A DNA stretch of 64,000 bases from a virus, in IMG/VR virus record IMGVR_UViG_3300045988_098681; one strand, written 5' to 3'. The notes below the pieces were generated by a model that was given only the letters and a program-made list of their open reading frames with translations, searched no databases and was not told where the DNA came from. This document shows positions 10,444 to 64,000 of this stretch, piece after piece (the first letter of the stretch is position 1; every line of letters begins with the position of its first letter). Made by a program: the position numbers and the translations under genes.

Positions 10444-11748
10444 TGAGAGTAGAAGAATGGCTTGGCGAAGATAATAAGATTGGGTTAGATATTTGGCACA
10501 AAAAGTATCAACATGGCAATGAGACATTCGATGAATGGCTTGATAGAGTAAGTGGAGGTGATAATGACCTAAGAGAACTCATTAAAAGTAAAAAGTTCTT
10601 ATTTGGTGGCAGAGTGCTTGCGAATCGAGGTGTGCCAGATAGTGGGAATTTTTATAATTGCTTTTCTGCCGGATATGTAAAAGACGATTATGCAAGTATT
10701 ATGGACGTATTAAAAGAAGTTGGTATTACGTTCAAGTATCAAGGTGGTCAAGGAATCTCCATGTCGAAACTTCGTCCAAAAGGAACAAAAATTGGCGATA
10801 ATTATGAGTCAGATGGTATTGTTCCTTTTATTGAAATGTTCAATTCTGTCACTAAAGGTACTTCGCAAGGCGGTGCAAGAAAAGGTGCTTTGATGATTAG
10901 CTTAGACATCAATCACAAAGAAGCCGAAACATTCATCAAGCTAAAAACTGATCTTGACGCTGTAACAAAAGCGAATCTCTCTATGGAAATAGACGATGAG
11001 TTTATGACTGCGGTGCAAGAGTTCTACTATGATGGGACAATAAAAACATTACATAAGAGATACAACTACAATGGGCATGTTGTGGAATATGATATTACGC
11101 CGATTGAATTGTATAAATTGATGATGGAAGTTGTATGGGACTACGGGGAGCCGGGGTGTATCTTTGTAGACGAATTTAGGAACAACAACTTTTTAGAGCT
11201 TGATAACGAGTATCAAATAGAAACTTGCAATCCATGCGGAGAACAACCATTAAAAGCTCGTACAAGCTGCTTGCTTGGCTCATTAAACTTATACGAGTTT
11301 GTTGAAAACAAGTTTACAAGTGATGTGTATTTTAACTTTGAGGAATTTGCAAAAGCTATTAAAGTAGCCTCAAATGCACTTGATAACATCATCGAAGAAA
11401 ATGCTCCAAGGCTTCCTAAAGAACTGGAGCAATACAAACAAAACGCTTATGATTGGCGTAATATGGGGCTTGGTGTATTCAACTATGCACACATGCTCAT
11501 GGCTATGGGGCTTAAATACGGTAGCGAAGAAGCGTTGGCTTTTACTGATACGCTATTTTACACTATGATGATAGAAGCCATTATATCAAATGACGAAAGG
11601 GGCAAAGAAAAGGGTAATTATCCAAAGTTCAAAGGCGGGTTAGTACAAAAGTCCACGATGTTTAGAAACCATGCCCCCGAAGAACTTTTACAAAACGGTG
11701 CGCTACATGCTAGAAATTGCACGTTGTTATCTATCGCGCCAACTGGAT
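10437..11748 (+). CDS. nrdJ: class II (adenosylcobalamin-type) ribonucleotide reductase, exon 1
   Basis: Contains the NPCGEQPL active-site loop and LLSIAPTG. The ORF breaks right after the conserved APTG at a stop codon that I place inside the intron. Confidence 0.75.
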
Positions 11749-12051
11749 TAACACAATAGGTTCAGTATAAACTATTTTAATTGCTGGAAACCCCTTAGAG
11801 CTACTTAAACTACAACGTAGGTATGAAATAAAACCAAGCGTGAATGTCTGAAAATTAAGTAGATTGGGCAATCAGCAGCTAAGACTCGAATAGAGTAAAG
11901 TTCAACGACTATCCCGCAAGGGAGTACACAATAAGCAAGAAATGATTGTGGAAAAGGATAGATACTATTTATAGTATAAGATATAGTCTATTCTTATAGG
12001 AAACTATAAGCAGTTATATAACGGCAAATGTCTTGCGAACATTTGTGAATG
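11749..12051 (+). mobile_element. group I self-splicing intron (ORF-less) in nrdJ
   Basis: P1 pairs exon CUGGAU (11743-11748) with GUUCAG (11760-11765), giving a U-G pair at the splice site. Core elements are UUAAUUGCUGGAAA, GUUCAACGACUA (11900-11911) and AAGAUAUAGUC (11978-11988), so P7 is GACUA/UAGUC. The intron ends in G, and joining the exons restores the frame (APTG-LKTIATMVNGAGGVEPEF). Confidence 0.75.
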
Positions 12052-48663: not shown

Positions 48664-50241
48664 TTATTCGGTATCGTCATATTCTCTAGCGTCGGTTTTA
48701 ACCTCATCTTGTTTAGGTCTACCTGCTTTATCGCTTGCTGTATGAATAGACATAAGCTGTACTAAATTATCTGTAAAGCCACCATATTTCGCCTCTTCCA
48801 TCATGCGCTCAAAATCTTGAGGCTTATAGCCGTAAGCAGCCCCAATAGCACTCGGAAGAACGATTCCGACATTAGCAAGTTCCATAACTTTCTTTTGTCG
48901 ATATTCTTGCTCGAATGGGAAATTGATTCCCTCGAACTCGAATGAGAATTTATACTTTCTTGTTTTCTTATTGACATAGAAGTTTAAGAACGCATTGAAT
49001 TGTGAGTACATACGTTTAATAATATTGCTATCATTGATAATCGCATTACGCACTTCTTCTTGACTCATTTTGCTCGTACTAAACAACATGTTGCCAGCAC
49101 TTGCGCTGATTGAGCTTGTGTTTGTTACTTGATTACTATATGTATCTGGGTTCTTATCCTCGTATTGATAAAAATCCAAGTTACGAACAGGTAACGCTCC
49201 AACCTTGATGTGCTTATCTAATCCACTACGAACAAGATTTAACAATTTACCAAGTGTCTTAGGATTGACAGCAAACGCATCTTTTATATTACCTGACTTT
49301 TGTTTGTCAAGCATTTCCATTTCTCCGACAAGAAGCCCATAAGCCGCCTCAATATCTTTGTCCTTTTGTAATGCTTGCATTTCCCTATCGGTAATCATGT
49401 TAGGGAGAGCGGGTGCTAAAAATGGCACAGTGTCAAACTTAAACTCATCGAGCAGAAATACCCAAGCACCCTGTTCGGGTGATGTTTGAACCCAATAAGA
49501 AAACGTGCCATTTCTACGATTTAATGGGTTGGTTGGCACATAATCAACCATGCTATTCTCGTCAAATATCTCTCTTGCCTTTTTTTTAAAGATAGGGTCA
49601 AAAGCATCAATATCAACGCCTGCTTGCAAGAAATAGCTCATATCAAAATCATACAGCCCACCTTGTTCAAAATAACCAGTAAGCAAGCAATAATCTTGAG
49701 GCATGGTTTGTAATGTATATTTTGGTAATTTTGTAACCTTTTCTGCCGAAACATCTTCAACGTCTTGGCTGAATGTTCCACGAGTTGTACGAAGCCAAGT
49801 AAAATCAGCTTGTTGTCTCGCACAAATATCAATAACACGGCTAAACTCTCTTTTGCAATCAAAGTTATCTAAAAATTTCCAAACTCTCTTCTTATCATCT
49901 AAATATTCTTTACTTCTATAATCATCGCCACTTGCGTTAATACAAGTAACTTTTAGGTCGAAGGAAAGCATGTTTGCATAATAACGAATCAACCGAGCAT
50001 AAAGCATATCATTATACTCAACCCATGCAGAATATTCTTGTAAGTCCTTAGCGCACTCTCTTGCCTTGTCAAGAGCCTTAATAACCTTATCATAATCAGG
50101 CGTTTTCGTGTTTCCTGTTAATGACACAAGGTTGTAATTGTTAAGGTGTGGCGTATAGAACCCATTTGTAAGCGCACTCGCAAAGGCTACAACATCATAT
50201 ACTTGCTCTTTTGTTAATCCATTCTTGTTTTTTTCTTCCAA
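48664..50241 (-). CDS. portal protein
   Basis: 525-aa ORF immediately downstream of the large terminase; size and position are typical. No motif verified. Confidence 0.6.
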   Translation of the reverse strand: MEEKNKNGLTKEQVYDVVAFASALTNGFYTPHLNNYNLVSLTGNTKTPDYDKVIKALDKARECAKDLQEYSAWVEYNDMLYARLIRYYANMLSFDLKVTCINASGDDYRSKEYLDDKKRVWKFLDNFDCKREFSRVIDICARQQADFTWLRTTRGTFSQDVEDVSAEKVTKLPKYTLQTMPQDYCLLTGYFEQGGLYDFDMSYFLQAGVDIDAFDPIFKKKAREIFDENSMVDYVPTNPLNRRNGTFSYWVQTSPEQGAWVFLLDEFKFDTVPFLAPALPNMITDREMQALQKDKDIEAAYGLLVGEMEMLDKQKSGNIKDAFAVNPKTLGKLLNLVRSGLDKHIKVGALPVRNLDFYQYEDKNPDTYSNQVTNTSSISASAGNMLFSTSKMSQEEVRNAIINDSNIIKRMYSQFNAFLNFYVNKKTRKYKFSFEFEGINFPFEQEYRQKKVMELANVGIVLPSAIGAAYGYKPQDFERMMEEAKYGGFTDNLVQLMSIHTASDKAGRPKQDEVKTDAREYDDTE

Positions 50242-50259: not shown

Positions 50260-52116
50260 TTATATTAAAATACCTGCAAAGTCATCTATATTAAAATCTT
50301 CTTGATTTTGAGATATTGCATGGTTATTTTCTATTTTATCTGCTATCCAATTTGCATATTGGAGCGAACTCATACGGTCTTTATGTCCCATTCTAGGTTG
50401 CGAAAGCGACAACATACCATTATCCTTCCATGTTGCTGATAGGTTAATACCCTCACTAATCAACATACTAGTTTGAACATATGGGAGCAAATACAACGCT
50501 CGTTGTTCAGATGTAAATTTAAAAGACTCTGGACTTTCATCAAATGTTTTCGTTGCTTGAAGTTCGTCCTCAAGCAACAACAAACTGCCGTTATTGAGCG
50601 ATTTCCAAAGCGACTTCCACATATTAGAGTTCATTTCAGCGGTTGCTTTCATCGGTATCATACAAGGAATATATTCTGGGTCAACTGTACGTTGACGAAG
50701 TTCGTTTAAAACACCCTCAGACAAAACTTGCATATTCGGCTCTTCACAAATACCAAATCCATGCGGATTCCAATTTTGTCTAGTTGGGTGTTTCCATGGT
50801 GAAGAAAGCATCGTATAATAAAGATTACCCCCACCGTTAATATCAACGCACAAATATGTGCAACCTAAATCCCAATATAGTTCTCTGATTCTTTGGTGAA
50901 CAGCTTGTTCATCGCCGCCACCCATAGACTCGATATATTCAAGCCTACGCTCTGTTGTTCCATCACTTTTACAAATAACCGATAAAACCTCTAAGGCACA
51001 CCTGTCAGACTCTTCTTTTTTACCAACTGCATCTTCTGAAAATGCTAAGTCAACCGAAAGCACACGATATTCATTATCCCGCTTTTTTCGATTCTTCTTA
51101 TCTATTCCAATATTAACTTCTTCATTTGTAGGTGGTTTCAAAGATTTGTTAAGAACTTGATTCTTTTGGAACATCTCAAGAGTATAATATGCACCATCAG
51201 CCTCTCCAACCATCTCATTCAAATCTTCTATTCTAAACTCAAGCTCACCGCCTTGTTTACCTTTCATATAGTCAACTTTTGTTTTGAGTCCATGGTGCAT
51301 AGCAACAAAGATATCTCCTGCAAAGAAGTTCCAATTTGCTAATCTGTCGTTATAGCAATTATTTACGCATTTTTTAAAAGACCTCCAAATCCAACTTGAC
51401 TTAAACCATGCAGAAGTTAAATAAATTTCCTTACACTCTTCTACTAAGTCTGGATCGTTTTCATATTCTGGAAATTGTAAATATTCTGCTTGCCTTGGTT
51501 GGGACATTTTAGTGAATACAGAATCCCAAATAGATTTTTTAATAAGTCTAGCTTCTTCGGCAATAAGGCAAGAACTCCTTTCGCCGCGGCTCGAATCCAA
51601 CGCTGGCATAACTTTAATCCAACTACCGTTCCAAAAATCTACTTGAGCGCAATCTTTAGGATGTGTAATTGTTATCATTCCATCATCTTTCATTTGCTTT
51701 AAAATGGATGATAGCTTACCAATAAGCTCTTTATCTATTTTATTATCAACTATCTTATTTGCTTGGTCGATTGTAGAAGAAACAACAACAATTTGGCTAT
51801 GTGGTCTAATCAAACAAATACATGTTGATGCAAGAGCCGTATCAAACGACTTACCAAGACCACGACTACAAATCATCCAAAAGAAATCAGATATGCCAAT
51901 CAAAAATAATTTAATGTGTTGAAATGGTTTTAATCTAATCCTTAACCTTTCACTAGCATATATATTTAAGTTTCTACGATAAAAGGTACACCATTGTTTA
52001 GTGCGAATGTCCTTTTCTTCTTTTGTTTGCTTTTTCTCTTGTTTCCAACGGTTCCTTCTTGCTTTCTTTATAAAGTCATAATATTGGCTCTCTTGTAGTA
52101 AATCTTCTCTTGTCAT
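50260..52116 (-). CDS. terminase large subunit
   Basis: Walker-A-like SRGLGKSF and Walker-B-like CLIAEEA, with a C-terminal RNase H-like nuclease region (VLSVDLAFS). 618 aa. Confidence 0.75.
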   Translation of the reverse strand: MTREDLLQESQYYDFIKKARRNRWKQEKKQTKEEKDIRTKQWCTFYRRNLNIYASERLRIRLKPFQHIKLFLIGISDFFWMICSRGLGKSFDTALASTCICLIRPHSQIVVVSSTIDQANKIVDNKIDKELIGKLSSILKQMKDDGMITITHPKDCAQVDFWNGSWIKVMPALDSSRGERSSCLIAEEARLIKKSIWDSVFTKMSQPRQAEYLQFPEYENDPDLVEECKEIYLTSAWFKSSWIWRSFKKCVNNCYNDRLANWNFFAGDIFVAMHHGLKTKVDYMKGKQGGELEFRIEDLNEMVGEADGAYYTLEMFQKNQVLNKSLKPPTNEEVNIGIDKKNRKKRDNEYRVLSVDLAFSEDAVGKKEESDRCALEVLSVICKSDGTTERRLEYIESMGGGDEQAVHQRIRELYWDLGCTYLCVDINGGGNLYYTMLSSPWKHPTRQNWNPHGFGICEEPNMQVLSEGVLNELRQRTVDPEYIPCMIPMKATAEMNSNMWKSLWKSLNNGSLLLLEDELQATKTFDESPESFKFTSEQRALYLLPYVQTSMLISEGINLSATWKDNGMLSLSQPRMGHKDRMSSLQYANWIADKIENNHAISQNQEDFNIDDFAGILI

Positions 52117-52982: not shown

Positions 52983-53098
52983 TATCCGACCATCCTTTTA
53001 TTCCTTTAGGGGAGGCACTAAGACCACCCCACAACAAATAGGAGGAGTTCTCCTTCAAAAAATATATTAAATTAAGTATAAATGTACTTAAGTGTACA

Positions 53099-54328
53099 TC
53101 ATAAAAAATAAATTTTTGAGTAACTCCAAAGTAATTTGCACTTTTTAGCATTCACCTTTTTACAGTGCTTTGTTGGGCTTTGAAAGTTCAATGCGTGTTG
53201 ACATGGGTACAGTGCTGTCACATATCCCATATGAGTTTCCCCACTCTTATACGTATATTCAACCAAGTCCCTATGCCTTATACCCAGTACATTATCTGTC
53301 TTAGCTTTACTCTGTCTGCGCATTGGTTTTACAATCCATTCTTTAACATCACATGTATCAGGCAGTAAGCCTGTAATACAGATAGCATCATTAGAATGTG
53401 ATTTCTCAATGTTCCAATCAATACGTTTATTTGCTGTATCACCACCGTTGGTTAAGTGCAATTCGCCAAGACTAGACAATTTGTCTCTAAGCCAATTCTT
53501 ACCAATCATCACATGTTGTGCATAGTTTAGATTTTTATTGTCACTTGAACCCAATATGGAAAAGTACCAATCCATGAACTGTTCTTCTTTACCTTCTGTT
53601 TTTTGGTGACAATTCTTGCACAGTGTGATTAGATTGCCGAGTGTATTTGAACCATTTAATCTCCTTGGCTTAATGTGATGCACTTCAAGCCCACAATCAG
53701 ATTTTCCACATTCCATACATTTACAACCGTCTCTTAAGATAACTGCCCTACGTATGTTTTCGTCCAACCTGTTTGATTTTTGATACTGCCATTTGTATGG
53801 TCTGTACCCATCAGTCAATGCTCTAATATCAATTGATACATCCTCAAGCCAATAACTTGTTATGTTTACCCATCTGTTAAGACAATTTATAACTCTAATT
53901 GTTGCTTGTCTCTTTTGCAGTATGCTTGGTGCAATTCTTCCTTTTCTTCTTGGGGAACTGCGATTGTTAAACCTTGCAGGTCTGTGCCTCTTGTGGTTTC
54001 TGTGATAACGTCTGTAACCACGCCTAACTTCCATCAAACGTTTTACATCGTTTCGCTGCTCGATTGTCCCCTTGAAAAGAACTTTGTTTTTCGTCTGGCA
54101 CTTTTGAACAACAGATATCCCCACATGAAGTCCGCCATCATCAATGCCACATCGCATCTCATCCTTACAAACTTCATTGTCTAAAATTTTTTTCTTAAGC
54201 CGTATTACCATTGGATATTTACTCACAAGCACTGCACGTTTCTTGCGAATAAGAAACCATGCTTTTTGCTCTTTTGTTGGAGCCAATTGTTTTCCATCAG
54301 CGTCTAACACAAAAGCATAATTTATCAT
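53099..54328 (-). CDS. iscB: IscB (OMEGA-system RNA-guided nuclease: PLMP + split RuvC + HNH)
   Basis: Shows YPMVIRL (PLMP-like), Ruv[17 protein letters not shown], bridge-helix-like [15 protein letters not shown], RuvC-II WLEDV, HNH CMECG...[28 protein letters not shown] and Ruv[13 protein letters not shown]. 409 aa with no frame disruption. Confidence 0.8.
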
Positions 54329-54645
54329 TTCTGATACCTTCCTTTCGGAGAATTTTTCTTCTTGCCAATGTCAAGCAGAGGACATGTGTTTCCCTGTTAT
54401 CAGTGCAGGGCATTAGTACTGTTTCTTGGTTGGCACTCACAGAGCCTTAAACTGAAAATTACATTCAAGGGTGTGTTTTTACCTTACTGCTCAACGTAGT
54501 TCATATCTGCAACTCGTCTTTCGACAATAGCAGTCACTTAGGCTTGAAACCTACCATTAAGCCGTGTGTAAGAGGCTTGTGTGCCCACTCTTACACACGT
54601 TTGTCAATACACTTCTATGGTTTTGACAACTTAATGACTAGTCCT
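54329..54645 (-). ncRNA. candidate IscB omega RNA (HEARO-type) in the 317-nt ORF-free leader
   Basis: IscB omega RNAs are encoded immediately 5' of iscB. The region has a 12-bp perfect helix (54563-54574/54588-54599), a GUC-GAAA-GAC hairpin and further stems. Exact ends are unknown. Confidence 0.5.
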
Positions 54646-55032
54646 CTATTCTACACTATCTCCCTTTTCTAAAATCTTCTTGAACTTTGTATATGCCTCA
54701 AACACATATTTACAAGAAGACGTTACGAAAAGTGCTAAAATAGCTAAATTACTAAAAATTTCCGCATACTCTTTTGGAATATTTAATCCGACATAGCTTG
54801 CAAACGCCGGAATTGTCGTAATAGCAATACATAATAATGCAAGACCAACAATAATAGTTGTAACTCTAATAACAGAGTCTAAAATTTTATTCTTGTCGAA
54901 CTTTTCCATAAGCATACGAATATTGTAATAAAGCGAAAACGCCATATTGCTAGTATAAGCAACTAAAAATAAAGCTGCACCAATACCAACATAAGTTAAA
55001 TTCTCAAGTACACCATCTAAAAAACTAGTCAT
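54646..55032 (-). CDS. holin-like membrane protein
   Basis: 128 aa with 3-4 TM helices, adjacent to the endolysins. Confidence 0.5.
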   Translation of the reverse strand: MTSFLDGVLENLTYVGIGAALFLVAYTSNMAFSLYYNIRMLMEKFDKNKILDSVIRVTTIIVGLALLCIAITTIPAFASYVGLNIPKEYAEIFSNLAILALFVTSSCKYVFEAYTKFKKILEKGDSVE

Positions 55033-55286: not shown

Positions 55287-55739
55287 CTACTTTAATGCGC
55301 TAAAAGGCATATTGATTTGCTTCCCACTCCTAGAATCCCAATGATAAAACACCTTGGAATATTTTATACAAGACCCTAAGTGCATGCCCCACTTATAAAG
55401 TCCTGCTTCACCAACTACGCCATGTGCCTTACAAATTGAACGCCACTTTTTCGCATAACGAATAAAATCGTCTTTTGACAAGTTTGGATTACTCCAATCT
55501 GTCGCACACCCACGAAGATGCGAAGAGGTTGCAGAGCCTCCAACTTTCTTATTATAATCCTTTGTACGATACCATGCGTTTATTTTCATTGATCTACCAA
55601 GCCACTTTCTAAACTCTTCTAAGCAAGTAGCATGCAGAATAGCAGATGCATTAAGAATACATTGACCTGTCTGATTAACCGTATATTCATCGATTGAAAA
55701 ATGTTCTGTCAACTTTGTAACTTTTACAGTTGCATCCAT
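55287..55739 (-). CDS. peptidase M15-family (VanY/L-Ala-D-Glu peptidase-like) endolysin
   Basis: SSHLRGCATDW matches the S-x-H-x-x-G-x-A-x-D zinc-ligand motif, and there is a downstream HLG... His. Confidence 0.65.
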   Translation of the reverse strand: MDATVKVTKLTEHFSIDEYTVNQTGQCILNASAILHATCLEEFRKWLGRSMKINAWYRTKDYNKKVGGSATSSHLRGCATDWSNPNLSKDDFIRYAKKWRSICKAHGVVGEAGLYKWGMHLGSCIKYSKVFYHWDSRSGKQINMPFSALK

Positions 55740-57135: not shown

Positions 57136-57210
57136 TGGCATACCTACTACGAATCGAACATAGATATACGGTTTTGGAGACCGCTGTTTTCCCAATTAAA
57201 CTATAGGCAC
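57136..57210 (-). tRNA. trnW: tRNA-Trp (anticodon CCA)
   Basis: Folded by hand. Acceptor GTGCCTA/TAGGTAT (two G-U pairs), D stem GTTT/AAAC, anticodon stem GCGGT/ACCGT with loop CTCCAAA, T arm CTATG-TTCGATT-CGTAG, and an encoded CCA. Confidence 0.8.
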
Positions 57211-57666: not shown

Positions 57667-57743
57667 TGGTGATGCCACCGAGGCTCGAACTCGGACTTTT
57701 CAGCTTGAAAGGCTGATGTGTTAACCAGTTACACTATGGCACC
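57667..57743 (-). tRNA. trnE: tRNA-Glu (anticodon UUC)
   Basis: Acceptor GGTGCCA/TGGCATC, D stem GTGT/ACAC, anticodon stem TCAGC/GCTGA with loop CTTTCAA, T arm CCGAG-TTCGAGC-CTCGG, and an encoded CCA. Confidence 0.8.
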
Positions 57744-57821: not shown

Positions 57822-57898
57822 TGGCGGGACATCTAGGATTCGAACCTAGAATCTTGCGGTTAACAGCCGCCTGCTCTAACCAGCTGAGCTAATGTCCC
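57822..57898 (-). tRNA. trnN: tRNA-Asn (anticodon GUU)
   Basis: GGGACAT...GCTCAGCTGGTTAGAGC...GGCTGTTAACCG...CTAGGTTCGAATCCTAG ATGTCCC G CCA: a canonical cloverleaf with one G-A at the top of the anticodon stem. Confidence 0.8.
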
Positions 57899-58196
57899 AT
57901 ATGGATGCAGGTACTCGACACTCCCCTTAGCTAAATCAAAGGATTTTAGGTGGCGATAGTTCAATAACTTATTTGCCTAACATGTGCAAACAAGTTTATT
58001 CATGCTCAGCCACCTAGAACTTTCATTAAGAAAAATTGTTGGAAACGACAGGACTCGACGTTACGTTCAACTAAAAAAAGTTGATTCCTTATTCATCGTG
58101 CTCTGTTTTGCCGAAGCTATTCCAGTTGGTATAGCACTCCAAAGGCTTAAATTCCCATGTAGCGATTTGGTACATATATGTAGTCACTTCTAGTTG
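57899..58196 (-). ncRNA. candidate TnpB omega (right-end) RNA region
   Basis: TnpB guide RNAs derive from the 3' end of tnpB plus the transposon right end. This 298-nt ORF-free stretch holds two copies of a CGAGU(A/C)CCUG motif (plus-strand 57908-57919 and 58049-58059). Ends are not defined. Confidence 0.4.
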
Positions 58197-59321
58197 TTAA
58201 ACTACATATTTCATTAAATTGATTGCTGCGTTGTAATCACGATCTATTACGGGACCGCATTCTGGACAGACGTAGATTCTGTCGCTGAGCTTTAGGTTTG
58301 ACTTAATCGTTCCGCAACAAGAACATGTTTTGGAAGAAGGGCAGAACCGATCTACCTGTACGAACTCGATCCCATTCCACTCACACTTGTATTTCATCTG
58401 ACGAACAAACTCATAAAAGCATTGTTCCTGAATTACTTTTGACAGGTGTTTATTCTTCATCATTCCAGACACATTAAGGTTCTCCATGACGACCCGATAT
58501 GGACGCATAAATACGAGTTTATGTGTTGCTTGATGAATATGATTTTGTCTTGTCATTGAAATGTGATAGGAAAGTTCTCGAATTTGTTCTTCGACTTTAA
58601 GAATATTAGCCGTCTTTTCAAAATTACCATTTTGATAATACTTACGAGAAACTTTACGTTGAAGGCGCTTCAATTTCTTTTGCTTTTTCTTCATGTTGGA
58701 AGTTTTGTTAATGTTCTTAATGACAATATTTTCATCGCCAAAAGCTACACTACAAAGCGCTTTGATTCCAAGGTCAATACCCATGGACTTATTTGTCAGC
58801 TCCAATACTTGGTTCTCACACTCAAAGCCAACTGTTAAAATCCATTTCTTATTGACATATGATATTCTTGGATTGTAAAATTTTGCTTCTTTTCCTAGTG
58901 GGACATTGTAGTTTGTCCGATATTTTACTTTACCGAGCTTTGGAATTGTTACAGATTCTTCGGTAAAGTAAGTTCCATCGTTTCTGATTGGATAATTAGG
59001 TTTCGATTTCTTTTTACTTTTAAATTTAGGAAAACCTGCGCCACGAAAAAAGTTTGAATATGCTTTATCAAGGTCTCTTAATGTTGTTACCAAGCTCGCA
59101 TTTAAAACTTCATTAAGCCAAGCATATTGTTCTTCTTTTTTCAATGGAGTGAGTTTCTTGATAAGATCAAAAGATGATAATTTCTTGCCGATGGAAGAGT
59201 ATTCCACTTTTTGAATCTCTAATCCCCAATTCCAGATAAACCTACAACACCCAATGTGTTTCCACATCAATTCTTCCTGCTCCTTAGTTGGGAGCAGTCT
59301 GATCTTGTACGTTTTCATCAT
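58197..59321 (-). CDS. tnpB: TnpB (IS200/IS605-family OrfB, RNA-guided RuvC nuclease); no tnpA nearby
   Basis: N-terminal YKIRLLPTKEQEELM, RuvC D (MGIDLGIKA), E (VVMENLN), zinc finger CPSSKTCSCCG...CPECG, and terminal RDYNAAINL. Intact at 374 aa. Confidence 0.85.
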   Translation of the reverse strand: MMKTYKIRLLPTKEQEELMWKHIGCCRFIWNWGLEIQKVEYSSIGKKLSSFDLIKKLTPLKKEEQYAWLNEVLNASLVTTLRDLDKAYSNFFRGAGFPKFKSKKKSKPNYPIRNDGTYFTEESVTIPKLGKVKYRTNYNVPLGKEAKFYNPRISYVNKKWILTVGFECENQVLELTNKSMGIDLGIKALCSVAFGDENIVIKNINKTSNMKKKQKKLKRLQRKVSRKYYQNGNFEKTANILKVEEQIRELSYHISMTRQNHIHQATHKLVFMRPYRVVMENLNVSGMMKNKHLSKVIQEQCFYEFVRQMKYKCEWNGIEFVQVDRFCPSSKTCSCCGTIKSNLKLSDRIYVCPECGPVIDRDYNAAINLMKYVV

Positions 59322-59399: not shown

Positions 59400-60426
59400 A
59401 TATATGAGCGAGACTTTGGGAACCGTTTTTACCTATCGACATCAGCATAGTGGTATTCAACGTTATCGAGTATGCTCCCGCCTTGCCATCTTCCAATGAC
59501 TGAAAATCTCGCAGAAATCTTAAGTTATTTTACTAAGCTAAACAACTAAATAACATGTGCCATGAACCTTCGTTCTACCTTCCACAATCATCGTCATATT
59601 CAACCAGTAAGTAGACAAGTCTGTGCCACAGGGAGCTACCCTATGACATCTTGCCTAGATGGAAACCATCAAATCTTACAAGGGGCTCTTTCTACCCTTA
59701 ACTTTCACAAAGCATTCAGAATTATTTTCTTCAAATCTTCATCATTTGACATCATTTGACTTGTAAAATTACTACAGTCATTGCTTTTTGCTACTCGTAC
59801 CTTGACCCTATCTTATACTTTGTCTTTCGACAATCTCACAGCAAACTTCCTTAGTGGCACTTCCGTACTTATGCCGCTTGCCACAGCGACACAGCCCTCG
59901 GATTCGGCTTACGCTTTTAACGCTTAGCTTCTATTGTGGAAGCGATAGGACAGTGTTTTTAACAAGGATTGCTTTAGCACACACCCCCAGAACCATTCTA
60001 TTCATAAGTGGCATCTTGCATCTCACAATGCAAGCCTTTGACCGTTACCAAAGCTATCGTTTTGGCTAGGCTATTCTTACCCGCAGGTGGGTAGTGTTCT
60101 CTGCACCATGCTCTTGGTCTACACAGAGTTATGGCACACATTATTTAGTTGTCTAAAAATGGCTACGGGATTGAGTACCGCCCTCAACAATAGTCGGGTC
60201 AAAGCCGACTGCGTTCACTTGTTCGCCATCCCGCAATATTTGGTTGGTATACGATTGAAACCATATACCAACCGTAAGGAAAAAAATATGAAAAAAGCGT
60301 TTTTCTTTTTTATTGTGGCGCACCAAATAAATTTTATGGATGTCCTTTTAGGAGGTAAAACACAAAAAACAGAAAGGTTGGTTTTAGGTGCGCCACTCGA
60401 ATATTTTGTTGTTTTCTCTCTTTACA
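59400..60426 (-). ncRNA. unassigned ~1 kb highly structured RNA candidate (large ornate ncRNA or ribozyme-like leader)
   Basis: Lies downstream of a consensus promoter. The transcribed strand has no ORF of 60 aa or more. G+C is locally ~50% against AT-rich flanks. It has multiple perfect 6-10-bp helices, one of them strand-specific through a G-U pair. The 3' boundary is a guess. Confidence 0.55.
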
Positions 60427-63001: not shown

Positions 63002-63277
63002 CATTTGTTTTATCTCTGGCTCTTTATCCAGAGCTTCTTTAAGTTTCCTTAAAGTATCGGACTATATCTTCACCATGCACTTTCGTGTTTAGGTGTTCAG
63101 CACTCGTGGGGGGATTATTGCTAGTTCTGCTCACCCCCTAGTCTCTGAGCCTTCCTATCTACTAAATGAACCTCGATAGGTTTGGCATATGGTTAGCATA
63201 TGCTTTTGCACTTAGCTTTCCACTATTCACTGAATATTTTTTACTAAATGTTTCCACTTAGCTGACCCATTTTACTA
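63002..63277 (-). mobile_element. group I self-splicing intron (ORF-less) in the RNA polymerase gene
   Basis: Core elements are GGCUCAGAGACUAGGGGG (GACUA at 63143..63139) and GAAGAUAUAGUCCG (UAGUC at 63064..63060). Downstream lie a CUUUAAG-GAAA-CUUAAAG hairpin and a CUCUGG/CCAGAG hairpin. The 5' splice site is after GCU (63278), with candidate IGS GGUCA. The 3' end is at G63047 or G63002. Confidence 0.65.
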
Positions 63278-64000
63278 AGCCACTACACTCAGAATACACA
63301 CATAATCATCATACTCTTTGTCTGTAAAACTATATCCATAAGTCAACGCAAGCTGCGCAAGATTACTAGACTCACCTATTGCCATTTGTGCTTTGGCAAG
63401 GTTGTTGTCTATAACGGCGTGATTGTACATGGATAAGTCATAATGATTTTTTTCTTTTGGAATGTTGTTTACAATGGTTGGATGGTTTATGTAGCAATAT
63501 TTGGCGTAGTCGGCAATGTCATGTTGATTTGTTACAAATACTTGGTCAGAATCCCAGTCGCAGCCATTTAGTCGGTCTTGGACATCTGTGTGTTTGCAAT
63601 TCATTGCAATACATTGCTCCCCAATATAAAAATATTTATCTAAAATATCGCTCTTAATATTTTTAAGTCCAATAATATTCGACTTACTATTGTGCGGGCT
63701 TCTAAATCCTGCTAAATACTCGTTTGCTCCAAACCTCTTTGTGTAACATTGAATACAATCCTGCTCTTGACCAAACGTATTGTCTTTTTCTACATCTTCA
63801 CCCACACTATGTAATAACATGGCATAAGGAGAGCCAACCATTACTAAGTTATCACCCTCTTGCAACACTTTACCAAACTTTAGATTTTTTACATAACCAT
63901 CAATTATTTTTTTCTTCCTGCTCCTAAAATACTCACTTCGCACAAATTCTGAATCCTGCTCGCACAATGCGACCAAAACCTCGTAGTCATTAGAAAAGTT
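63278..64000 (-). CDS. YonO/cellular-RdRP-like two-barrel RNA polymerase, exon 1 (continues beyond window)
   Basis: FRSPHNSKSNIIGL...CIAMNCKHTDVQDRLNGCDWDSDQVFV parallels the RdRP/YonO signature (R-x-P...D ... G-G-D-x-D-G-D-x-y-x-V), here with a DxDxD catalytic loop. The frame is open to position 64000. Confidence 0.45.

Follow-up and report, generated by a model that had tools for sequence, protein, structure and literature searches.

An IscB element and its element-free alleles in the late-gene region of a phage genome

Work by Meers et al. showed that IscB and TnpB read their guide from the flank of the element and cut the rejoined, element-free site (the donor joint), that the target-adjacent motif (TAM) of the nuclease is the motif used by the transposase TnpA, and that an element-end motif differing from the TAM at one or two positions escapes cleavage (PMC10055086). 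We analyzed an IscB locus in a viral DNA of 64,000 nucleotides (IMG/VR record IMGVR_UViG_3300045988_098681, called the window in the following), in which a preliminary description had flagged positions 53,099-54,645 as a complete 409-residue IscB preceded by a candidate omega RNA, the RNA partner of OMEGA nucleases (named for their obligate mobile element-guided activity). The locus is probably a non-autonomous ISC-type element of the IS200/IS605 superfamily, consisting of iscB and its omega RNA only, that maintains itself and spreads by RNA-guided cutting of element-free phage genomes.

When the protein was compared with all PDB sequences, the top match was HfmIscB (9K2Z_A, E = 1.5e-194, residues 3-409), followed by TbaIscB, several OgeuIscB-type entries, type II-D Cas9s and IsrB. 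HfmIscB, a protein of ~410 residues with identical domain order, was 68% identical over 406 aligned residues with one 1-residue gap (BLASTP). A scan of IMG/VR with the IscB protein returned at least 118 viral relatives, and 80 loci with 65-82% amino acid identity were retained. The window falls in a subfamily at 78-82% identity (L003-L035), whereas HfmIscB belongs to another, in whose range lie the viral loci at 65-69% identity (L036-L082). The latter have the same 320-nt leader architecture as the window, but each of the two groups has its own form of the central hairpins in the 5' RNA domain. OgeuIscB (7XHT, 7UTN, 8CSZ) shares the layout of PLMP, RuvC, bridge helix and HNH, the catalytic residues and an upstream omega RNA with a 5' guide and a match to the HEARO family. 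It is larger (~496 residues versus 409) and only weakly similar (E = 2e-22), the window RNA has an extra ~100-nt 5' domain outside the HEARO model, and the OgeuIscB TAM, NWRRNA (PMC12660989), differs from the AGGAG deduced below for the window IscB. The IscB element ISGst5 from Geobacillus stearothermophilus is likewise of IS200/IS605 type; as is proposed for the window, its IscB cuts the donor joint with a guide from the flank, with the TAM at one end of the element and an uncleaved near-TAM at the other (PMC10055086). ISGst5 has the TAM TTCAT, is chromosomal and multi-copy and occurs with TnpA in the same genome (PMC10055086), whereas the window element lies in a phage, next to AGGAG, and no TnpA was seen. 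HEARO/HNH loci in Staphylococcus myophages, some annotated as 'HEARO' in their records, are more distant copies with an RNA and ORF of the same class; they were 64-66% identical in nucleotide sequence to the window element over 78-94% of its length, but belong to another host group and phage type.

The limits of the element were definable from related genomes, as the preliminary description had anticipated. In about 50 independent viral loci, the stretch homologous to the window started exactly at 54645 and ended at about 53048-53050, and these two limits held for most of the 80 loci. Element-free alleles were present in near-identical phages. In MT839428 (L002), a scaffold of a human-faecal phage, both flanks were 98.6% identical to those of the window and ~1.58 kb was absent; the IMG/VR contigs L083 and L084 also lacked the insertion. 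At the junction, the empty allele of L083 reads GTAGAATAG followed directly by AGGAGAATTCC, and the occupied allele reads GTAGAATAG, then the element from AGGACTAG to TTTTTGA, then AGGAGAACTCC. In a longer view on the iscB sense strand, GGGAGATATTGTAGAATAG is continuous with AGGAGAATTCCTCCTATTTG in L083, and in the window GGGAGATAGTGTAGAATAG is followed by the element (AGGACTAGTC to TTTTTTGA) and by AGGAGAACTCCTCCTATTTG. From this comparison of the empty with the occupied allele the element comprises exactly 53055-54645, without target-site duplication. Of the limits first proposed, the one at 54645 stood, and the other had to be moved 44 nt outward to 53055; the predicted guide (54646-54661) lies outside the span that had been given. 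For two other insertion sites, the empty form was predicted and then searched for. That of L016/L018/L019, ...TTTTTAAGA followed by AGGAGGAATAAAAAGAAATGG..., was found in six contigs, and that of L020/L021/L024, ...TTTGAACAAA followed by AGGAGAATATTAAAATG..., in four, with a fifth contig (L134) carrying the latter empty site with one extra A. At all three sites with empty alleles, the element sits directly 5' of AGGAG and its own start is AGGAC. At the L016 site, the left flank and the end of the element share an 8-nt repeat, TTTTAAGA. It was considered as a duplication and put down to chance similarity between AT-rich ends, since neither of the other two sites with an empty allele has it. A tandem repeat of 10 bp, TAGAATAGAG twice, was seen at the IscB target in L002 (~2770-2790) and L084 (~320-345) but not in L083; in these two of the three empty alleles it may be a scar of cleavage and repair or the product of ordinary slippage.

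The junction motifs were examined across the family. The 3'-junction motif was AGG[AG][GAC] in all 41 distinct sites and lay 24-50 nt past the iscB stop codon. At the other end, the C at position 5 of the element-encoded look-alike of the TAM (the 'TEM') was invariant in the 42 distinct leaders of alignment A1. The shared AGGA was considered as a target-site duplication and rejected: the first four bases of the element at other loci were AGGG, AGAA, AAAA, AAGA or GGGA while the 3' flank was AGGA or AGGG, the two differing at L004, L005, L011, L037, L047, L080 and L081. In 52 of 54 distinct flanks the start codon of an open reading frame (ORF) of at least 40 codons followed 12-18 nt after the start of the motif, the two exceptions being copies with an interrupted iscB. 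Thus, in most cases the 3' motif coincides with the Shine-Dalgarno sequence of the gene that follows. The window is an exception in this respect, since its AGGAG forms the 5' arm of a terminator-like hairpin that belongs to the lysis cassette. The element lies there in sense orientation, with the stop codon of the cassette's last ORF on one side and this hairpin on the other. The 5' flanks were unrelated between insertion sites; a co-oriented ORF ended at most 72 nt upstream in 20 of 34 distinct sites and at most 2 nt upstream in 11 of them.

These junctions and the flank-derived guides of the described systems suggest how the element may act. The predicted guide, AGAUAGUGUAGAAUAG, whose length was taken as 16 nt by analogy with OgeuIscB, covers the last codons and the TAG stop of the upstream ORF and lies directly 5' of the first paired nucleotide of the RNA scaffold, which is the second base of the element. 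Of its 16 positions, 15 agreed with the L083 empty allele, where AGGAG follows; thus the relatives yielded not only the empty site but also a predicted guide and TAM, the comparison that had been proposed for them. Elsewhere in the window, no match to the guide with up to four mismatches followed by AGGAG was found. According to the proposed mechanism, a read-through transcript from the lysis genes would begin with 16 nt (54661-54646) contributed by the upstream gene as the guide. IscB and this RNA would then recognize the same 16 nt followed by AGGAG in a phage copy without the element, either in a co-infecting relative or after excision. The predicted target is AGATAGTGTAGAATAG, or its L083 variant, followed by AGGAG; on the guide strand the TAM would, as with Cas9, lie 3' of the target. 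HNH and RuvC would cut this target, and recombination with an element-bearing genome would copy the element in, resulting in homing or retention. The element's own locus would be spared, because the guide-matching sequence there precedes AGGAC and not AGGAG. First arrival at new sites, 5' of AGGAG, would require a Y1 TnpA supplied in trans.

The protein is an IscB by every sequence criterion tested. Its 409-residue ORF matched RRXRR (PF14239, 1e-45, residues 6-184) and HNH (PF01844, 3.8e-11) in Pfam. In alignments to OgeuIscB and TbaIscB all catalytic residues were kept: D63 of RuvC-I, E162 of RuvC-II, and H311 and D314 of RuvC-III, as well as H217, H218, N232 and H241 of HNH. The zinc site of HNH is of the Cys4 type with all ligands (C204/C207 and C237/C240) intact, in agreement with the inserted HNH with a CxxC...HH...CxxC pattern that the preliminary description had noted, the two histidines being H217/H218. 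No inactivating substitution was found in either nuclease domain, so the reading of the ORF as a complete IscB held. The Arg-rich bridge helix corresponds to residues 102-123. Residues 5-45 aligned to the PLMP domains of TbaIscB and OgeuIscB, but the motif itself had been misplaced: QLAP at 14-17 lies opposite PLMP in both proteins, and PMVI at 39-42, formerly taken as PLMP-like, aligned to the PF(T/V)I strand further on. By homology to structurally solved IscBs, the protein would carry out RNA-guided, TAM-dependent cleavage of double-stranded DNA.

The leader was found to encode a structured RNA that starts at the element end. In all complete loci the ATG lay 313-324 nt from the point where homology starts, giving a leader of ~320 nt across the family. 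With the 42 leaders (mean column identity 81%), RNAalifold predicted 63 pairs, 32 of which showed compensatory changes on both sides. The leader of the window folded alone gave a minimum free energy of -86.5 kcal/mol (z = -2.1) and reproduced the 5' domain. This domain was evaluated separately in an alignment of 21 homologous leaders (A2), using 500 shuffles and slid structures as controls: 96.8% of the cells were paired, compared with 32-51% in the slid controls, and double changes occurred in 12 of 31 pairs, values matched by none of the 500 shuffles. The 12-bp perfect helix that had been noticed in the window showed compensatory double changes in 8 of its 12 pairs, far beyond chance. Three G.U pairs of the domain (2:102, 6:98 and 17:86) were invariant or nearly so and would become C-A mismatches on the opposite strand. 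Thus, the constraint acts on RNA of the iscB sense strand rather than on DNA hairpins of the opposite strand, a cause of leader conservation that these pairs disfavor. Hairpins occur near both element ends, and those at the omega RNA end carry G.U pairs fitting sense-strand RNA and not opposite-strand DNA. With Rfam RF02033, cmscan returned a match over the full HEARO model at E = 5e-5, below the gathering score. The RNA is related to HEARO but has diverged from the seed, and by position, strand, structure and this weak match we file it as an IscB omega RNA, not as a HEARO at the Rfam threshold. The 317-nt ORF-free leader (54329-54645) thereby keeps its standing as omega RNA, and the single GAAA-capped hairpin mentioned for it turned out to be two. 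A second copy of the omega RNA was not present in the window, nhmmer giving a single match. In the final leader hairpin, UCUCC-GAAA-GGAAGG (54337-54351, - strand), a CUCC stretch resembling an anti-Shine-Dalgarno sequence pairs with the ribosome-binding site of iscB. Because this hairpin covers the ribosome-binding site and was almost invariant in the 42 leaders, the folded omega RNA may limit translation of IscB.

Relatives of the protein are labeled 'HNH endonuclease' in PHROGs and GenBank, and the spot just upstream of the terminase genes resembles that of HNH packaging factors. An ordinary protein-guided HNH endonuclease, serving as an accessory to packaging or as a homing endonuclease of the free-standing kind, with the leader as a mere 5' untranslated region, is nevertheless contradicted by the present evidence and highly improbable. 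Such an enzyme does not account for RRXRR and a split RuvC with all its residues, for the full-length match to solved IscB structures, or for a covarying 316-nt RNA that starts exactly at the element end. Moreover, near-identical phages lack the gene altogether, and it is therefore not needed for packaging.

A sigma-70-type promoter belonging to the omega RNA was not found on the - strand upstream, and TTGACA-like words in the leader were without a usable -10 element. Between a terminator-like hairpin at 56657-56631 and the element no promoter-like site was seen on the - strand, and read-through from the lysis genes therefore probably produces the omega RNA, whose end would be set by the native hairpin just past the element. 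That no promoter of its own was detected would also fit a recently dead relic, intact in appearance and unexpressed or inactive. We consider this very unlikely in view of the full-length ORF with every catalytic residue and zinc ligand in place, an RNA that keeps every covarying helix, and a guide with 15 of its 16 positions still in agreement with the empty allele.

The ends of the element are those of an IS200/IS605 element. Empty and occupied alleles at three sites showed neither duplication nor inverted repeats, and on the + strand of the window the order is CTCCT, the element ending in ...GTCCT, and the flank, i.e. a pentanucleotide target on one side and, on the other, a motif almost the same. 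The AT-rich stretch past the iscB stop codon is a putative transposase-binding end. A transposase in cis is the IS200/IS605 feature that was not found: the element encodes none, and neither Y1_Tnp nor resolvase matched any of the 31 window ORFs of 84-233 residues scanned. Elements in all loci examined were IscB-only and ~1.6 kb long; most known IscB elements are likewise without TnpA (PMC10055086). The end features invoke the idea that mobility is essentially transposase-driven, with a Y1 TnpA of the host or a prophage excising the element and inserting it as single-stranded DNA 3' of CTCCT (+ strand) and with no real part for phage-to-phage homing. The at least 34 unrelated flanks, which imply many de novo insertions, point in the same direction, and the IscB of ISGst5 provides a published precedent (PMC10055086). 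The metagenome-assembled genome Eubacteriales CM_BacCAG1528.41, which contained at least six loci on different contigs (L086, L092, L108, L112, L120 and L122), also counts in favor of this idea; it suggests that copies multiplied within a single genome or bin, where the missing TnpA might be sought. The absence of TnpA from the element and the scanned ORFs and the IscB-only composition of all loci speak against it, and polymorphism at the same site among phages 97-99% identical fits homing equally well. We regard the purely transposase-driven account as a strong contender, falling slightly short of an even chance; it complements rather than excludes self-maintenance of the element by RNA-guided cutting.

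The family was widespread, with members on at least 118 viral contigs and at 42 loci in genomes of Bacillota, including Lachnospiraceae, Erysipelotrichaceae, Gemella, Veillonella and Selenomonas. Intact copies occurred beside decayed ones, the iscB frame being interrupted after 151 codons in L068 and after 22 in L069. A miniature derivative of 510 bp was found in L001 (MT835474.1, 5883-6392, - strand) and also in MT835533.1 (H11). Its two ends are present, as is an intact omega RNA of 321 nt with ~80% identity to the leader of the window. Of an internally deleted iscB it retains only ~22 N-terminal and ~20 C-terminal codons, and the insertion point is again directly 5' of AGGAGG plus ATG. It resembles an RNA-only, non-autonomous passenger that would depend on IscB in trans. 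One could read the abundance in gut phages, the existence of such RNA-only derivatives and the direction of the guide against a conserved late-operon junction of close relatives as signs of co-option by the phage, either as a weapon against related phages without the element or as a DNA-binding ribonucleoprotein regulator independent of nuclease activity. This is unlikely. At three sites near-identical phages differ in having or lacking the element, pseudogenes are found among the copies (L068, L069), and the insertion sites are scattered without a fixed genomic context, all of which is typical of a selfish element.

Several points weigh against RNA-guided self-maintenance as proposed here. 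Transcription, cleavage and homing at the window locus are predictions. The TAM was read from junctions only, where it is confounded with the insertion preference of the moving transposase, and the guide length is an assumption taken over from OgeuIscB. Site L017 has AGGAC instead of AGGAG at the 3' junction, and the HEARO score of 35.2 bits stays below the Rfam gathering score of 83. Comparison of the window with L083 in 200-nt bins revealed no gradient of single-nucleotide polymorphisms towards the insertion and no mark of co-conversion, a result that is uninformative for homing. Finally, at least 34 unrelated insertion sites are more than homing alone can explain, and the transposase that they would require did not turn up among the 31 window ORFs scanned.

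The features of the locus and its surroundings are compiled in Table 1. The position of the insertion between the lysis cassette and the terminase genes of this gut phage was borne out, with the endolysin upstream and a probable small terminase, the large terminase (TerL) and the portal protein downstream. Likewise, the second OMEGA nuclease reported on the same strand proved to be a TnpB, with a RAGATH-18 RNA (63.1 bits versus a gathering score of 44.9). This IS607-type element lies 3.8 kb from the IscB element. L083, 97-98% identical to the window, lacked the TnpB block as well, 180 bp replacing the 1,481 bp of window 59539-58058. Because both elements are absent from L083, they are recent gains or losses in the phage lineage. 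The 180-bp replacement in L083 (8370-8485) ends in a tRNA-like 3' end, GGTTCGAGTCCTGCCGTTTCCA, matching a 5' GGAAACG, and received no ARAGORN call; the window keeps only the last ~21 nt of this stretch (58058-58040), right after the TnpB element. Directly upstream of the TnpB insertion point, near a tRNA cluster, lies a ROOL RNA matching the full 574-position model. The cluster, between the lysis region and the TnpB element, consists of Trp-CCA (57136-57210), Glu-TTC (57667-57743) and Asn-GTT (57822-57898), all on the - strand, and L083 has another set of tRNAs in its place (Tyr with the ARAGORN anticodon ATA, Ile-TAT and Glu-TTC). Group I catalytic introns (RF00028) were detected twice, at 63037-63286 (-) and 11713-12010 (+), with 77.2 and 73.5 bits, both above threshold.

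Table 1. Features of the IscB locus and neighboring parts of the window.
Feature	Position	Strand	Remarks
Whole mobile element	53055..54645	-	1,591 bp; no target-site duplication, no terminal inverted repeats
iscB	53099..54328	-	409 aa, ATG start, intact ORF
IscB C-terminal part		-	TAM-interaction region
Element 3' end past iscB stop codon	53055..53098	-	AT-rich, short hairpin TGTAC..GTACA; conserved in outline across loci
Inferred TAM	53050..53054	-	AGGAG (- strand) = CTCCT (+ strand); abuts element 3' end
TAM look-alike ('TEM')	54641..54645	-	AGGAC (- strand) = GTCCT (+ strand); element-encoded
Terminator-like hairpin	53040..53054	-	AGGAGAACTCCTCCT + T-rich tail; lysis cassette's own, present in empty alleles too
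Predicted 16-nt guide	54646..54661	-	AGAUAGUGUAGAAUAG
Omega RNA scaffold	54329..54645	-	~316 nt, element end to iscB start codon; ORF-free
Family-specific 5' domain	54547..54644	-	~100 nt, outside Rfam HEARO match
Guide-adjacent closing stem	54644-54629 with 54562-54547	-	Element bases 2-17; encloses small hairpin and 12-bp helix
12-bp perfect helix	54599-54588 with 54574-54563	-	Inside 5' domain
HEARO-like core	54350..54525	-	RF02033, model positions 1-211 of 211, E = 5e-5, 35.2 bits
GAAA-capped hairpin	54525-54516	-	GUCGAAAGAC; in leader
GAAA-capped hairpin	54349-54340	-	UCCGAAAGGA; in leader
Upstream ORF	54646-55032		3' end including TAG stop = predicted guide
Endolysin	55287-55739		Upstream flank; two small ORFs also upstream
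289-aa ORF, probably small terminase			Downstream flank
Large terminase (TerL)	50260-52116		Downstream flank
Portal protein	48664-50241		Downstream flank
TnpB ORF	58197..59321	-	HTH_OrfB_IS605, OrfB_IS605, Cas12f1-like TNB domain
RAGATH-18 RNA	58085-58145	-	63.1 bits; just downstream of TnpB
ROOL RNA (RF03087)	59545-60152	-	269.5 bits

The HfmIscB family, with its solved structure, is already known and abundant in gut phages, an IscB in a phage will not surprise a specialist, and the current picture of IscB biology is unchanged by the present locus. What the locus adds are exact limits, three natural empty-site pairs, a predicted guide, the AGGAG motif, an extended omega RNA structure and a rule for junctions at stop codons and ribosome-binding sites; it suggests a compact 409-residue IscB with an AGGAG TAM. 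Near-identical phages exist in both states, some having the 1,591-bp insertion and others lacking it, and so form a natural before-and-after pair for a viral OMEGA element. Because paired alleles, a matching guide and two more polymorphic sites are available, phage-to-phage homing of a guide-RNA transposon becomes directly testable with defined sequences.

A broader interpretation is put forward tentatively, as a possibility towards which we do not yet lean. This IscB lineage may have specialized on the Shine-Dalgarno sequence AGGAG as its TAM, settling at junctions of stop codon and ribosome-binding site without breaking genes or removing the downstream ribosome-binding site, taking guide and transcription from the upstream phage gene, and spreading from one co-infecting gut phage to another in the manner of a natural gene drive guided by RNA. 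It would thereby converge with IS607 TnpB/RAGATH-18 on the same motif in the same phage. The latter is likewise an OMEGA system of gut Firmicutes, and its TAM, determined experimentally, is also AGGAG (Ren et al., PMC11061315), but the nuclease is unrelated (RuvC only), the RNA carries the guide at its 3' end, and the TAM lies 5' of the target. Literature linking IscB to AGGAG or Shine-Dalgarno sites was not found in a search that did not include the paper on 9K2Z. The presence of two OMEGA systems in one phage, both absent from L083, points to dense colonization of the late regions of gut phages.

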